Shown here: positions 32,900 to 37,871 of the stretch, piece by piece
Layout: each line of letters opens with the position of its first letter
Position numbering within the stretch: position 1 is the first letter of the stretch
Assembly (NCBI GenBank): GCA_022561985.1
Contig: JADFQE010000004.1
Location: 1-50,408, forward strand
Source: Chloroflexota bacterium
GTDB taxonomy: Bacteria; Chloroflexota; Dehalococcoidia; Lucifugimonadales; Australimonadaceae
Reading direction: 5' to 3'
Length of the DNA: 50,408 bases
Program-made: the position numbers and the translations under genes
The notes under the pieces: model-generated
Seen by the model: only the letters and a program-made list of their open reading frames with translations
What the model was told of the DNA's origin: nothing
Database searches by the model: none

Positions 32900-32927
32900 C
32901 TGGCGAGTGGGTCCAGGGCTATGCCCT
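32900..32927. repeat. REP-like palindromic repeat, copy 3
   Basis: CTGGCGAGTGGGTCCAGGGCTATGCCCT; contains the stop codon of the Ham1-like gene. Confidence 0.75.
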
Positions 32928-33542
32928 GGATAGGCGCTCGAGCAGGTCGCGAGCGAGGGGCGTGAGCGCGAGCCACGGGTCGTCCTCGAGGGCCAGGTCG
33001 GCCTCGGACCGCTCCCAGTGGCGCTTGCCGGAGGCGTCCGAGACCCACAGGCCGCTGACCCAGAAGCCGGTGGGGCCGTCAGGCGGAGGGACGTAGTCCT
33101 CCGCGATGCGCCCATGCAGCCCGCTGGCCTCCCACGCGCCCAGCAGTGCGCCGTCGCGCGCGATGGCGACGGCCTCGGTCCAGTGCGCCGAGCGCCGCTC
33201 GCCATCGAGGTCGCGCATCCGGCGCAGCAGGCGCTTCGCGTGCTCCTCGTCGCTCACCTCACCGCCCGTCCCGCGGCGCGTCACCAGACTCGACCAGCCG
33301 TCTCCGAGCGCGGGGATGACGAGGCCGCCGTCGCTGGCGAGGGCGAGGCCCTGGTGCGCGCGGGACCAGACCACCGCCTTGCGGATCGCGTTGCCGAGGT
33401 GCGAGGCGCTGTCCTCCTCGACCTCCGGCGGCGATGCGATGCTCGATGCGTCGAGGAGCGTGATGCCGGCTCCCGTGGCAAGCACGCGGAGGCGCTCCGC
33501 CTTCGCGGGGTTCGTCGTCGCCAGGAGGACCGATAGCGTCAT
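32919..33542 (-). CDS. Ham1/ITPase-family NTP pyrophosphatase, divergent
   Basis: LLATTNPAK, EVEED..HLGNAIRKA, LASDGGLVIPALG; lacks the FGYDP and SHR signatures. Confidence 0.72.
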   Translation of the reverse strand: MTLSVLLATTNPAKAERLRVLATGAGITLLDASSIASPPEVEEDSASHLGNAIRKAVVWSRAHQGLALASDGGLVIPALGDGWSSLVTRRGTGGEVSDEEHAKRLLRRMRDLDGERRSAHWTEAVAIARDGALLGAWEASGLHGRIAEDYVPPPDGPTGFWVSGLWVSDASGKRHWERSEADLALEDDPWLALTPLARDLLERLSRA

Positions 33543-33606
33543 GCGGGAAGCGCTGCCTCTCTCCCGTGGCGTCGTTGCCAGACGGGCCCTTCGACCATCC
33601 CCCCGT

Positions 33607-33698
33607 CCCCCTTCCAGCCTGGAAGGGGGTGATGACCCTGGATACGGGGGAGACCCCCGTGCCCCCGGCAAAGGGGCTCCGCCCCTCCGCGCTCCCCT
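33607..33698. repeat. Cluster of three GC-rich hairpins (REP/MITE-like)
   Basis: CCCCCTTCCA-GCC-TGGAAGGGGG (33607-33629); ACGGGGG-AGA-CCCCCGT (33644-33660); AGGGGC-TCC-GCCCCT (33672-33686). Confidence 0.6.
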
Positions 33699-33747
33699 GC
33701 CTTCCAATAGCGGTGCTATCGCAGCGCGGCAGCGCCCGCCACGGCTG

Positions 33748-35511
33748 CTAGCTCCGGCCGAATTCGCGCTCTAGCGAACTCGTCGTGACGCGCAGCATCG
33801 TGGGGCGTCCGTGGGGGCAGTGCTGCGGTATGTCCTCCGTCGTGAGCGCGTGGCCCAGCGCCTCCATCTCCTGGCGGTCGAGGGTCTGCCCGGCCCGCAC
33901 GGCCGAGTGGCAGGCGATGGAGGCCGCGACGGCCAGGTGCGTGTCCGAGCCCGCGCCGCCGCTGTGTGCGTCGAGTATCTCCGCGACGAGCTTGGCGGCG
34001 CTGACGGAGCGCGCCATGAGCGGCACCGAGCGCACCAGCCACGTCGAGCCGCCGAAGGGCTCGATCCTCACGCCGTAGCGCTCCAAAGTCGGCTGCGCGC
34101 CGGCGACGGCCTCGACCTGCTCGGGCGTGAGCTCCACCGGCAGCGGCTCCAGCATGGACTGGACCTCCGGCCGCCGCTCCTCCCACTGGCGCAGCAGCCT
34201 GTAGTAAAGCACCGCCTCGTGGGCCGCGTGCTGGTCGATCAGGTACATGCCGTCGGCCCCTTCGGCCACCACGAACATGTTCGATATCTGGCCGAGGATC
34301 CGCAGCGGCGCTCGCGGAGACCCGGGCGCCCCCTGCCCAGCGGCCGCCGGAGCCGCGAGAGCGTCTTCGCCGCCGCTCGGTGAGGCCGAGGGCTCGGGCA
34401 GCGGAGCGAGCCCGGCGCTGAGTGCCGGGGCCAGCCCGCCGAGCGCGAGGGTTGGTGCAGGCGTGGGCGCCTGGGCAGGCGCGGGCGGCGGGGCGAGCAG
34501 GCCGCGCGCCTCGGCCACGGGCGAGTCTGCGAGCAGCGCCTCGCGCACCGCACGCTGCACGCTGGAGAAGGCGTCGGCGTCGCGGACGAGGCGGACCTCG
34601 CGCTTGTTGGGGTGCACGTTGGGGTCGACCTCGGCCGGCGGCACATCGACGAACATGGCCGCGATCGGGTAGCGGCCCTCCATGAGCAGCCCCGCGTAGG
34701 CCTGCTCCACGGCGACGCTGAGCGTCCTGTTGGAGACCCACCGGCCGTTGACGAACAGACTCATGCCGGTGCGGTTCGGCCTGCTGCGCTCCGCGGGGCT
34801 CACCATGCCATGCACGGGATACACGCCGCGCGCGGACCCGGTGACCTCGATCAGCGAGTCCGCGACCTCGGCGCCGTACACCGCCGCCATGACGTCGCGC
34901 AGCGCGCCGTTGCCGGAGGTCTGGAGCAGCATGCGCGCCTCCGAGCGCAGCGAGAAGCGCACGTGCGGGCAGGCCATGGCCATGTGGTCGAGCACGCCGC
35001 GGATGCGTGCCGTCTCCGCGCTGGCCGAGCGGATGAACTTGAGGCGCGCCGGGATCGTCGAGAAGAGCGCCTCGACCGTGACGGACGTGCCCGGCGCGCC
35101 GGAGCTCGTGCCCTCCGCGATGACGGCGCTGCCCTCGATCTCCACGAACGCGGCCGCCTCCGCCCCCGCGGTGCGCGTGAGGAGGCGCACGTGCGCGGCT
35201 GCTGCGATGCTCGCCAGCGCCTCGCCGCGGAAGCCGAGCGAGGTCACCGCCGCGAGGTCATCGAGCGATCGAAGCTTGCTGGTGGCGTGGCGCTCGAAGG
35301 CAAGCCGGAGCTCGTCCGGCGCGATGCCGGACCCGTCGTCGGTCACGCGGATGCTCTGAAGGCCGCCCTGGAGAACCTCCACGCCGACCGTGCTCGCGCC
35401 TGCGTCCAGGGAGTTCTCGACGAGCTCCTTGACGACCGAGGCGGGGCGCTCGATGACCTCCCCGGCGGCGATCCCGGCGGCGACGGCGGGCGGCAGCACG
35501 CGTATCACCAC
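33748..35511 (-). CDS. mutL: DNA mismatch repair protein MutL
   Basis: IAAGEVIERPASVVKELVENSLDAG, HATSK, GFRGEAL, NVHPNKREV, DQHAAHE, ACH, CPHGRP. Confidence 0.97.
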   Translation of the reverse strand: MVIRVLPPAVAAGIAAGEVIERPASVVKELVENSLDAGASTVGVEVLQGGLQSIRVTDDGSGIAPDELRLAFERHATSKLRSLDDLAAVTSLGFRGEALASIAAAAHVRLLTRTAGAEAAAFVEIEGSAVIAEGTSSGAPGTSVTVEALFSTIPARLKFIRSASAETARIRGVLDHMAMACPHVRFSLRSEARMLLQTSGNGALRDVMAAVYGAEVADSLIEVTGSARGVYPVHGMVSPAERSRPNRTGMSLFVNGRWVSNRTLSVAVEQAYAGLLMEGRYPIAAMFVDVPPAEVDPNVHPNKREVRLVRDADAFSSVQRAVREALLADSPVAEARGLLAPPPAPAQAPTPAPTLALGGLAPALSAGLAPLPEPSASPSGGEDALAAPAAAGQGAPGSPRAPLRILGQISNMFVVAEGADGMYLIDQHAAHEAVLYYRLLRQWEERRPEVQSMLEPLPVELTPEQVEAVAGAQPTLERYGVRIEPFGGSTWLVRSVPLMARSVSAAKLVAEILDAHSGGAGSDTHLAVAASIACHSAVRAGQTLDRQEMEALGHALTTEDIPQHCPHGRPTMLRVTTSSLEREFGRS

Positions 35512-35586
35512 GGCGATACGCCTTCAAGCCTGTCTTGCACGGACGTGGCTATTGTCATGGTGACAGATGCTGTACGAACGCAAAAC

Positions 35587-35940
35587 TCAGAAACCGAGCT
35601 CGGCTCCCAGCTTCTTGGCGTTCGTCCCCGCGGTCAGCCGCCCGTCGATCACCACCAGCGGCCGCCGGAAGTAGCGGGGCTCCTCGACCAGGAGCTCGAG
35701 GAGCCGGCCGTCGGTCAGCGAGTCGGGGTCCAGCCCGCTCTTCTTGAAGGCGGCCGACTTGAAGTTGAACACCTCGCGCGGCGACTCGTCCCCGAGGAGC
35801 GCGCGGAGCTCGTCCGCGGAGAAGCGGTCCTTGAAGAAGTCCCGCTCCCCGAACGCGAGGCCCGCCTGCGAGAGCGCCGCCCTCGCCGTTCGGCAGGTCC
35901 CTCAGCCCTTCCACCAGTAGAGGTCGATGCTCGTTGCCAT
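35587..35940 (-). CDS. ArsC/Spx-family thioredoxin-fold protein with in-frame UGA (probable selenocysteine, UxxC), 117 aa
   Basis: MATSIDLYWWKG-(TGA 35902-35904)-GTCRTARAAL...ERDFFKD...PRYFRRPLVV. TGA occupies the first Cys position of CxxC; hairpin directly downstream. Confidence 0.82.
35865..35897 (-). promoter_or_regulatory. Candidate bacterial SECIS hairpin
   Basis: mRNA after UGA: CCUGC...GAGGGC-GGC-GCUCUC-GCAGG; G-starting apical loop 23 nt after UGA. Confidence 0.55.
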
Positions 35941-36101
35941 GGCGCGATTCTAGGCGAGGGGCGGGCCATATCGCCAGAGGGGGGGCCGGCCACTTGCGGA
36001 GGTTCCTTGGGACCCCTAACCGCTCGTGCCCGGACCCAGACCACTCGCGCCGAGGTTGCCGCCCGTTGCTCCCAGGCAGGCGATGGCCTAGCATCTCGCG
36101 C

Positions 36102-36569
36102 ATGGCCGACGTCTTCCTGCTCATCGTCCGCTGGGCCCACGCCATCGCGGCCGTGGCCTGGGTGGGCGGCGGCATCTTCTACTGGGTCGTGCTGCGGCCC
36201 GCGCTCCGGACCGAAGGCGTCCCGCCGGCGGTCGCCCGCTTCGCCGGAACCGAGTTCGGCGGGCTCGTGGCGCTGTCTGCGTGGACGCTCGTGATCACAG
36301 GCGCCGTCTTGGTGTTCGCGCGGCTCTCGGAGCCGGCGGCAGACGTCCCCTACGCCGCCGTCCTCGCGGTCAAGATCGCGCTCTCGGGCTGGATGTTCTT
36401 CCTCATCAGCGGCCGCCGCCGGCGCCGCACGCCCCCCGACGGTGCGCCGCGCGGCCGGCTCCGGGCGGCGGCGGACGCGCTCGGCCACGTCAACATGACC
36501 GTGGTCCTGGGCATCGTCGTCTTCGGGCTCTCCGACGTCCTGCGCCTGCTCATCGAACGGAACCTGTAG
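36102..36569 (+). CDS. Four-helix membrane protein, CopD/DUF4149-like
   Basis: RWAHAIAAVAWVGG, LVITGA, YAAVLAVKIAL. Confidence 0.65.
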   Translation: MADVFLLIVRWAHAIAAVAWVGGGIFYWVVLRPALRTEGVPPAVARFAGTEFGGLVALSAWTLVITGAVLVFARLSEPAADVPYAAVLAVKIALSGWMFFLISGRRRRRTPPDGAPRGRLRAAADALGHVNMTVVLGIVVFGLSDVLRLLIERNL

Positions 36570-36580
36570 ACTAAGCCGCC

Positions 36581-36763
36581 ATGCGCCGCGATCTGATGGA
36601 CATACTCGTGTGCCCCGTCTGCAAGGAGCCGCTGGAGCTGCACGTCGAGCGCGAGGAAGACGGCGAGGTGCTCACGGGGACGCTGACCTCGCCGGGGTGT
36701 GGGGCCACCTACCCGATCGAAGACGGCATCCCCAACCTGCTTCCCGCCGACATGCATGCCTAA
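36581..36763 (+). CDS. Trm112-like (UPF0434) protein
   Basis: LMDILVCPVCK...YPIEDGIPNLLP. Confidence 0.85.
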   Translation: MRRDLMDILVCPVCKEPLELHVEREEDGEVLTGTLTSPGCGATYPIEDGIPNLLPADMHA

Positions 36764-36803: not shown

Positions 36804-36860
36804 CTTTGACACTCCGGAGCGGGGCCGATACCCTTGGCGCGCCCCGGCTCGCTTCTCCTC

Positions 36861-37871
36861 ATGACTGATACCGCCCACGCGAACACCGAGCTTGCAGCCC
36901 GCCTGACGATCGACGTGGTCGACGGAGGCGGCGCGTCCGGCACCATGGCCGAGGACGTGCTGGCCGGGCTCACGGCCGAGCGCAAGCAGCTGCCGCCCAA
37001 GTACTTCTACGACGACGCCGGATCGCGGCTGTTCGAGCAGATCACGGAGCTCCCCGAGTACTACCCGACGCGCGCCGAGCGCGAGCTGCTCGAGGAGACC
37101 GCGGACGGCCTCATGGCCGGTCTGCGGCCCGTCGAGATCGTGGAGCTGGGCGCGGGATCGTCGGCGAAGACGCGGCGGCTGCTGAGCGCCCCCACCGCCC
37201 ACGAGCACCTGCGGCGCTTCGTCCCCATGGACGTCAGCCGCGAGATCGTGGAATCGAGCGCCCTCGGCCTGCTGCGTGACTACCCCTACCTGAGCGTCCA
37301 CGGCGTGATCGGCGACTTCGAGCGCCACCTCGGGCGCATCCCGCAAGCGCTGGGGCGGCGCCTCGTGCTCTTCCTGGGCGGCACCATCGGCAACCTGCAC
37401 CCGCCGGAGCGCACCGCCTTCCTCACCGGCGTGCGCGGCCTGCTGGGTCCCGGCGACCGCGTGCTCATCGGCCTGGACCTGGTGAAGGACGTCCCGACGA
37501 TGGAGGCCGCATACAACGACGCAGCGGGGGTCACGGCCGCGTTCAACCGGAACATGCTCTGGGCCATCAACCGCGAGCTCGGGGCGAACTTCGACCCCGA
37601 TGCCTTCGCACACCGCGCGTTCTTCAACGCGGAGGAGTCACGCATCGAGATGCACCTGGTGCCAAGCGTGGCCCAGGAGGTCAGCGCACCGGACATACCG
37701 CTGCATGTGACCATCAGACCGACCGAGACCATCTGGACCGAGAGCTCGTATAAGTTCACCGTCGCGTCGATCGAGGAGATGCTCACCGGCGCAGGCCTGC
37801 GGCTCGAGCACTGCTACACCAACGAGCACCCCGACCGCCGGTTCGCCCTCGCCCTCGCCGCACCTGCTTAG
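36861..37871 (+). CDS. egtD: L-histidine N-alpha-trimethyltransferase
   Basis: KQLPPKYFYDDAGSRLFEQITELPEYYPTRAE, ELGAGSSAKT, FLGGTIGN, AYNDAAGVTAAFN, RIEMHL, TESSYKF. Confidence 0.93.
   Translation: MTDTAHANTELAARLTIDVVDGGGASGTMAEDVLAGLTAERKQLPPKYFYDDAGSRLFEQITELPEYYPTRAERELLEETADGLMAGLRPVEIVELGAGSSAKTRRLLSAPTAHEHLRRFVPMDVSREIVESSALGLLRDYPYLSVHGVIGDFERHLGRIPQALGRRLVLFLGGTIGNLHPPERTAFLTGVRGLLGPGDRVLIGLDLVKDVPTMEAAYNDAAGVTAAFNRNMLWAINRELGANFDPDAFAHRAFFNAEESRIEMHLVPSVAQEVSAPDIPLHVTIRPTETIWTESSYKFTVASIEEMLTGAGLRLEHCYTNEHPDRRFALALAAPA

Follow-up and report, generated by a model that had tools for sequence, protein, structure and literature searches.

A stretch of 50,408 nt from an uncultured bacterium of the phylum Chloroflexota (positions 1 to 50,408 of contig JADFQE010000004.1, assembly GCA_022561985.1; "the window" below means this whole stretch) contains, upstream of mutL, a gene whose active site is encoded by an in-frame TGA. 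Given the conservation of this codon, the covarying hairpin that follows it, and the decoding machinery present in the source genome, the reading proposed in a first-pass annotation of the window is supported, and this locus is a true selenoprotein gene. The probability that it encodes a genuine redox protein of the ArsC/Spx fold, in which selenocysteine (Sec, U) is the leading residue of a UxxC motif, is put at about 0.93, a figure that excludes any specific cellular role.

The coding region (35590..35940, reverse strand, marked (-) below) runs from an ATG at 35940-35938 to a last sense codon ending at 35590, and its translation with TGA as U gives an ArsC/Spx-fold protein of 117 residues. 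The Sec codon (TGA, 35902..35904, -) is codon 13, at a column that holds either TGA or a Cys codon in homologs, and the surrounding motif reads LYWWKG-U-GTC-R, so that U-G-T-C forms the UxxC. The second member of the pair, the resolving cysteine Cys16, is encoded by a TGC (35893..35895, -) and its column is invariant in an alignment of 30 protein sequences. The gene ends in a second TGA (35587..35589, -). Relatives end in TAG, TAA or TGA at the same place; thus, TGA acts in this gene as an ordinary stop unless followed by the hairpin described below. A list of open reading frames (ORFs) made with translation table 11 contains just a 61-aa fragment with a GTG start (35587..35772, -). The first-pass annotation had noted both this fragment and the 117-residue product of read-through, and both are present as it described them.

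The in-frame TGA, its hairpin and the selenocysteine machinery

The first line of evidence is the distribution of the TGA among relatives. In a six-frame search of 60 related genomes and the source genome, near-full-length matches were obtained in 47 genomes; exactly one TGA falls within the match in 46 of these and none in the remaining one (G007), and a 48th genome gave a match to a C-terminal fragment alone. When the loci of the best 30 relatives were excised and aligned, the same column held TGA in 29 and TGC in one, which is again G007. A scan of all prokaryotes, with one genome per species, revealed at least 537 relatives, from which the best 80 loci (genome_contigs) were used. At the Sec column these public loci have TGA in 77 cases and TGC in two, and one match falls short of the column; all but two of the 80 come from Dehalococcoidia, SAR202 or Chloroflexota metagenome-assembled genomes, the other two being labelled Syntrophaceae. 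The 30-locus and 80-locus sets were drawn from overlapping species collections and are not additive. Finally, among 401 genomes of the class Dehalococcoidia, 95 have matches at E <= 3e-24, and by a count from the table there is one TGA in 85 of these and none in 10; of the ten, one match stops short of the site, and the other nine are classed by the absence of a TGA, not by the codon they carry.

The TGA is conserved across dozens of species in which protein identity falls to about 40%, and in the 30-sequence alignment the 12 codons before it, as well as the UxxC motif, are kept at the protein level. Full-length Cys forms are present among database homologs (P0025, P0029 and P0030). The pairing of Cys with TGA, which the first-pass annotation had offered as a check on its claim that the UGA lies at a redox cysteine, was found at one shared column, with U13 aligned on the Cys of the homologs.

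The same codon accounts for the way in which the family appears in databases. The proteins deposited for close relatives are fragments of 64-100 aa that begin after the TGA, as expected of gene callers that treat TGA as a stop, and the full-length entries are Cys forms. Some of the fragments are named "arsenate reductase-like glutaredoxin family protein" by the Joint Genome Institute (JGI). The sole ArsC/Spx-family gene of the source genome and of most Dehalococcoidia/SAR202 genomes is called as a fragment that lacks the active site, and surveys of redox and stress genes in the abundant marine SAR202 bacteria therefore miss it. The finding is first and foremost a correction to annotation, one that extends to the class as a whole. 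One full-length homolog from an ENA metagenome (P0026) carries W at the Sec column; a pipeline that translated TGA with another genetic code is the most likely source of this residue.

Independent sequencing bears on the codon as well. Public runs with a marine or marine sediment label, 20 in number and drawn from 11 studies, contain near-identical DNA, and the TGA is unchanged in contigs from two DNA runs and in one 1336-nt contig from an RNA library, which covers 35100-36200 and includes the divergent upstream gene. Strain differences among the run contigs lie in the flanks, and none lies inside the hairpin. All four of the runs that were compared were compared as contigs, which speak to presence and not to transcription, and the contigs of X18 do not cover 35581-35987. 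The TGA is not a read error.

The second line of evidence is a hairpin that resembles a bacterial selenocysteine insertion sequence (bSECIS). This element (35868..35886, -) has an 8-bp stem formed by 35886-35879 with 35875-35868 and a loop, GGC, at 35878-35876. The stem begins 15 nt and the loop 23 nt past the TGA, and the first loop base is G, so that the G-led loop which the first-pass annotation placed 23 nt after the UGA is indeed there. In bacterial SECIS elements, the loop is expected 16-37 nt from the UGA. The element itself has been described as having a small apical loop that contains a G (PMC1088965, in the portion of the text available).

Among relatives, this hairpin is maintained through compensatory changes. 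The RNAalifold consensus computed on 29 Sec forms is exactly the 8-bp helix, with 97.8% of the helix cells paired and compensatory changes on both sides in four pairs. In a larger set of 78 sequences, the helix is 93.5% paired, as against 33-66% in controls in which the 3' partner was slid by 1-3 columns, and the G that opens the loop (G30 of the alignment) does not vary in either the 29 sequences or the 78. With the register held fixed, at least 7 of the 8 pairs form in 70 of 77 TGA forms, and the hairpin is absent from the two TGC forms, in which 5 and 3 pairs are left; for four TGA forms with 4 pairs in the fixed register, reading by hand reveals a possible 7-bp stem with a one-base bulge. 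Furthermore, some compensatory changes, such as that from AGG/TCG to AAA/TTG, replace the amino acids encoded by each of the two arms, and consequently the RNA of the hairpin appears to constrain the encoded protein.

The third line of evidence is the genome itself, a 2.39-Mb assembly in 153 contigs that is 88.7% complete and belongs to a SAR202-type member of the Dehalococcoidia. The four genes to which the first-pass annotation had tied its proposal, selA, selB, selC and selD, are all present. SelA scores 424.5 bits, SelB 335.5 bits where the cut-off is 242, and SelD 390 bits (G000:C37:6788-7708, -); a tRNA-Sec of 98 nt with anticodon UCA was found on contig C82 both by aragorn and by Rfam RF01852 (68.2 bits, cut-off 47). 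Thus, the combination that had been named as fatal to the proposal, a genome without Sec machinery together with homologs that all have TGC or TGT, is not what was found. SelD itself has one in-frame TGA at its N-terminal active-site position, and as a selenoprotein it adds to the picture of a source genome rich in such proteins. A second tRNA, called as tRNA-SeC(tca) by aragorn (88 nt, G000:C152:2922-3009), scores 40.8 bits with the Rfam tRNA-Sec model, below the cut-off of 47; its stretch of DNA has 59% G+C, compared with 74.5% in a stretch of the same size around the tRNA-Sec of C82, and it may represent a contaminant contig or a different UCA tRNA.

The occurrence of SelA in other genomes follows the pattern expected if Cys replaces Sec when the machinery is lost. 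Full-length SelA is present in all five of the Sec-form genomes tested and in half of a set of ten genomes with an uninterrupted copy of the gene, and the only Cys form inside the family, that of G007, comes from a genome without SelA at 93% completeness. Some genomes retain SelA yet use a sense codon at the Sec column.

Several results weigh against Sec decoding, or at least temper the case for it. Folded on its own, the sequence of the source genome gives -27.5 kcal/mol with a z-score of -1.78, and 11 of 200 shuffles of this GC-rich DNA do as well. No Rfam SECIS family was found at the locus even at a permissive E-value, the only match being a chance one to IRES_Hsp70 (E 0.6). Among the 78 sequences, double-change cells number 43 as against 11.6 +/- 2.3 in shuffles, and neither this count nor the covariation score was reached in any of 500 shuffles, but such statistics are inflated by the use of related, coding sequences, given protein constraint and shared ancestry, and double changes occur in just four of the eight pairs. 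The RNA-library contig is no proof of transcription, because DNA can occur in such libraries. No curated NCBIfam model reaches its cut-off with the protein, the best being TIGR01617 (Spx/MgsR) at 54 bits against 75.05, and literature searches found no report of selenium insertion in any family member. A possible lower helix (35861..35897, -; 35897-35892 with 35866-35861), which appears in the single-sequence fold of the source genome, is not claimed, as 67% of its cells are paired in relatives and there is no convincing covariation. For the hairpin proper, the shuffle figures carry less weight than do the slid controls and the difference between Sec and Cys forms. On whether the observation goes beyond chance, the comparison among sequences is judged decisive.

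In the mechanism proposed, the UGA at codon 13 would be read as Sec by SelB and tRNA-Sec, recruited by the 8-bp in-gene hairpin 15 nt downstream, and the TGA at the end of the gene, where there is no such hairpin, would lead to termination.

Fold, probable role and rival explanations

The protein falls within Pfam ArsC (PF03960; E 8e-14, 52.1 bits against a gathering cut-off of 24), and an AlphaFold2 model of the 117 residues has a predicted local distance difference test score (pLDDT) of 90.3. The best Foldseek match to this model is Spx (3gfk_A; E 1.9e-9, template modelling (TM) score 0.79, 30% identity); Spx chains in general give TM scores of 0.79-0.80 and other chains of the ArsC family, including YffB and ArsC, 0.74-0.79, and the top matches, from Spx and the ArsC family together, span 0.77-0.80. 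A search of the Protein Data Bank (PDB) with a profile of 30 members places Spx 1z3e_A first at 81 bits, followed by "putative arsenate reductases" at 60, YffB at 55, and R773 ArsC at 47. In the hidden Markov model (HMM) alignment, U13 and C16 align on C10 and C13 of Spx.

From this fold and motif, a thiol/selenol-disulfide oxidoreductase or redox sensor emerges as the most likely role, somewhat better than an even bet, and it is ranked ahead of a regulator of the Spx type, with arsenate reduction considered unlikely. Under such a role, the exposed selenolate of U13 would attack an oxidised substrate or an oxidant, Cys16 would then resolve the adduct, generating an intramolecular selenenylsulfide between U13 and C16, and a cellular reductant would recycle this bond.

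The alternative that survives best is that the protein is an Spx-type regulator, in which a selenenylsulfide, rather than a disulfide, would serve as the redox switch and the protein would bind RNA polymerase's alpha subunit at its C-terminal domain (alpha-CTD), redirecting transcription under oxidative stress. If so, selenocysteine would for the first time be seen as the switch of a transcription factor. It counts against this role that no Sec-containing transcription factor is known to us from bacteria, and none came to light in literature searches. Such a role would be in keeping with the first place of Spx chains both in the profile search, where ArsC-type chains reach at most 60 bits, and in Foldseek, with the placement of the redox pair, and with an RRP motif that aligns on R91-R92-P93 of Spx. 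In addition, TIGR01617 is the top NCBIfam model for all 30 family members, and some full-length Cys homologs bear the JGI label "regulatory protein spx," an automatic annotation. The features reported as conserved in the Spx family are CXXC, an RPI motif, and Gly52 (PMC8501982, in the part of the article available). The first two have counterparts here, as U13-x-x-C16 and as an invariant R93-P94 that is followed by L, V, M, I, A or F. Gly52 falls on a variable Ser, an assignment made uncertain by an adjoining 2-residue gap, and a Gly 2-3 residues earlier is nearly always present.

At the contact with the polymerase, the likeness to Spx is partial. The same available text lists L46, G52, V71, M74, L76 and L79 as the hydrophobic contact of Spx with the alpha-CTD and describes Tyr263 of the alpha-CTD as highly conserved in all low-GC Gram-positive bacteria (PMC8501982). 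In the protein of the window, only three of these six contact residues are the same or similar (L49, L75 and L80, matching L46, M74 and L79), and in the HMM alignment V71 falls on Pro and L76 on Asp. The alpha-CTD of the host RpoA has Leu at the place of Tyr263, before N-C-L-K-R-A, in an alignment with the B. subtilis sequence made by eye. Furthermore, the protein at 117 aa is without the C-terminal tail of Spx, and its score with TIGR01617 stays below the curated cut-off. Thus, of the first-pass suggestion of a redox enzyme or Spx-like regulator, the nearness to Spx in profile and fold stands and several of the features specific to Spx are missing, and a regulator of this kind is regarded as possible but on balance unlikely.

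A different role is suggested by position. The mutL gene (33748..35511, -), which encodes 587 aa with Pfam domains MutL_C, DNA_mis_repair and HATPase_c_3, lies downstream in the same direction, and its GTG start at 35511 is 75 nt past the stop of the Sec gene, as the first-pass annotation had stated. Among the loci of the 30 relatives, mutL is downstream in 28, with a gap of no more than 181 nt in 25; of the 80 public loci, 42 have it downstream at a distance of up to 2.5 kb. One genus has four loci (L019, L020, L021 and L024) in which the TGA that ends the Sec gene shares one base with the ATG of mutL, and a second genus has three (L015, L016 and L025) in which the gap is 9 nt. The overlap of stop and start suggests translational coupling of mutL to the Sec-decoding gene: since UGA would have to be decoded before ribosomes reach an overlapping or close mutL start, the synthesis of MutL could be coupled to that decoding. 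Furthermore, in 19 of the 80 loci the end of a co-directional mutS lies immediately upstream, and in 20 of the 80 an ORF of 147 aa lies between the Sec gene and mutL, giving the order mutS-X-ORF-mutL (for example, L104:44-5075). This arrangement belongs to another lineage of the Dehalococcoidia and was noted at L104, L084, L086, L088, L090, L093, L096, L101, L102, L105, L106, L109-L111, L113, L114, L116, L117 and L120. Searches with the 147-aa ORF gave nothing in Pfam and, in NCBIfam, just a weak HAD N-terminal match (22 bits, cut-off 137). The MutL of the window carries Cys-containing endonuclease motifs, ACH and CPHGRP.

These arrangements have led to the hypothesis that the Sec protein is a working part of a mismatch-repair operon, as a selenol/thiol reductant or redox gate for MutL/MutS or as a device that couples MutL synthesis to selenium or redox state. 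Were the placement beside mutS and mutL functional, the selenium/redox state of the cell would be tied to replication fidelity. However, MutL_C is present in 370 of the 401 class genomes (with the unpublished genome G299 counted among them), as against strong matches to the Sec gene in 95 of the 401, and in one family MutL is present in 25 of 25 genomes and the Sec gene in none of the 25. In addition, no mutL lies in the 2.5-kb flank of 38 of the 80 loci, and the neighbours are unrelated in the five that were scanned. The linkage could be explained by inherited gene order, and a working part in mismatch repair is regarded as improbable. Co-occurrence with mutL was also considered as a test and set aside as non-discriminating; MutL_C is near-universal, and hence MutL does not need the Sec gene.

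Less probable again, to the point of being very unlikely, is a glutaredoxin-coupled arsenate reductase, that is, a true ArsC whose catalytic Cys has been exchanged for Sec. The arginine triad of ArsC (R60, R94 and R107) is matched in part only, and this counts against such an enzyme. The Pfam family is indeed ArsC and the fold matches R773 ArsC (TM 0.74), but the scores with the dedicated models are far below their cut-offs (TIGR00014 arsC, 37.5 bits against 106.05; NF007456, 23.8 against 242), and the R773 ArsC chains, at 47 bits, are the lowest of the ArsC-family matches in the PDB. No ars genes adjoin the locus, which is flanked instead by mutL, a Ham1-like gene and a gene for a membrane protein. 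Sec-containing "arsenate reductases" have been reported from the Sargasso Sea, but their motif, in the portion of the paper available, is UxxS and not UxxC (PMC1088965).

Two accounts that do away with Sec altogether have next to no probability. Gene calling with table 11 yields the 61-aa ORF alone and public databases hold truncated products, as they would if the TGA were a nonsense mutation, a sequencing error or the mark of a pseudogene, or if a downstream ORF of 61-100 aa were the only real gene, but the conservation of the TGA in dozens of species refutes this, and the covariation of the hairpin, the independent runs, the conserved upstream codons and UxxC motif, and the full-length Cys forms speak against it as well. 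A genome-wide reassignment of UGA, for example to Trp or Gly, would fit the W of P0026 and is equally remote, given that the gene itself and several relatives end in TGA, that each TGA-bearing match has exactly one TGA, always at the Cys column, with no in-frame TGA seen at non-Cys columns in the genes examined, and that the Sec machinery is complete.

Flanking signals and neighbouring genes

Upstream of the gene, the hexamer TAGAAT (35947..35952, -), which the first-pass annotation had proposed as a -10 element, is present 6 nt before the ATG. However, a strict sigma-70 scan for two hexamers across 35400-36150 found no site, and TAGAAT is thus an unsupported -10 candidate. At this place the hexamer is common only to the source genome and a congener, and in neither is there a Shine-Dalgarno sequence at the gene start, which suggests that the mRNA may be leaderless in these two. 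In most of the remaining relatives, TACAAT lies 30-45 nt upstream and a GGAGG precedes the start.

Downstream, the 75-nt spacer to mutL (35512..35586, -) contains a conserved TTTTGCGT at 35585-35578, directly after the stop, and similar motifs of the TTTGCGT type follow the stop in many loci of the family. A terminator-like hairpin (35609..35588) has TTTTGCGT as its tail. The motif could be a terminator or attenuator, the -35 of a mutL promoter, or a binding site.

Several other genes lie nearby. Just past mutL is a gene for a Ham1/RdgB-like nucleoside triphosphate (NTP) pyrophosphatase (32919-33707, -), a second DNA-fidelity gene. On the other side, a divergent membrane-protein ORF (35934-36569, +) is listed with a TTG start that overlaps the start of the Sec gene and has weak matches to Urate_ox_N and CopD; its relatives align from residue ~22-57 onward, and its true start is probably near 36102, as judged from these alignments. 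Beyond it are genes for a Trm112-like zinc-ribbon protein (36581-36763, +) and an EgtD-type histidine methyltransferase (36834-37871, +; PF10017, E 2e-106).

Comparison with known systems

The first-pass annotation rated the novelty of the gene too high, because ArsC-like selenoproteins with UxxC have been in print since 2006-2008. Selenoproteins described as ArsC-like came from two deltaproteobacteria in 2006 (PMC1794560, as far as the available text extends). The 2008 selenoproteome drawn from Global Ocean Sampling (GOS) then listed "Arsenate reductase 2 (UxxC; cd03032)," with 42 Sec and 238 Cys sequences, among previously described families (PMC2398784, in the part available), and an "Arsenate reductase-like protein, COG1393, UxxC" appears in a 2022 review (PMC9312934). 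By its motif and its Spx-type profile, the family described here matches the GOS "Arsenate reductase 2 (UxxC)," and it is therefore best regarded as already known.

The GOS family likewise has the ArsC/Spx fold with Sec first in UxxC, and it was predicted from TGA/Cys pairs and SECIS elements. In the available part of the supplement, at least three GOS reads share the family layout when inspected by eye: two aromatic residues ahead of U, then U-[ST]-T-C-[KR], ERD-F, and EPRL-RRP (PMC2398784). The heading is mixed, however, as most of the reads inspected under it are from a separate subfamily, whose C-terminal motif differs. Within their available text, the papers of 2006-2022 give no organism, gene context or function for such a protein, whereas the present copy comes from a high-GC genome of the SAR202 type and from marine sediment runs. 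Literature searches, whose scope lay outside subscription journals, yielded no paper that deals with selenoproteins of SAR202 or with a Sec-containing Spx-like gene in mismatch-repair clusters.

One curated model that allows Sec, NF041106 ("ArsC_rel_Se_1, ArsC family (seleno)protein"), scores only 20.3 bits with the family protein against a cut-off of 85 and matches only 16 of the 30 family members at all. Thus, the family is a different subfamily, without a curated NCBIfam model at its cut-off.

Two further groups share the Pfam family or the fold. YffB (PA3664, PDB 1RW1) is of like size and fold (TM 0.79, 55 bits) and its substrate is likewise not known; it differs in that its model, NF008107, gives just 20.1 bits against a cut-off of 121, and it is not known to carry a CxxC pair. 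The Sargasso Sea proteins of the 2005 study, described as UxxS "arsenate reductases" in the available text (PMC1088965), and the R773-type ArsC belong to the same Pfam family, with Sec in the Sargasso proteins at the N-terminal active-site position; the motif is UxxS there and UxxC here. The nearest solved relative by both profile and fold is Spx of B. subtilis (PDB 1Z3E, 3GFK and 7F75). The two proteins have the positions of the redox pair and the RRP motif in common, and they differ in that the protein described here has Sec in place of Cys10 and belongs to a host from the Chloroflexota rather than the low-GC Gram-positive bacteria.

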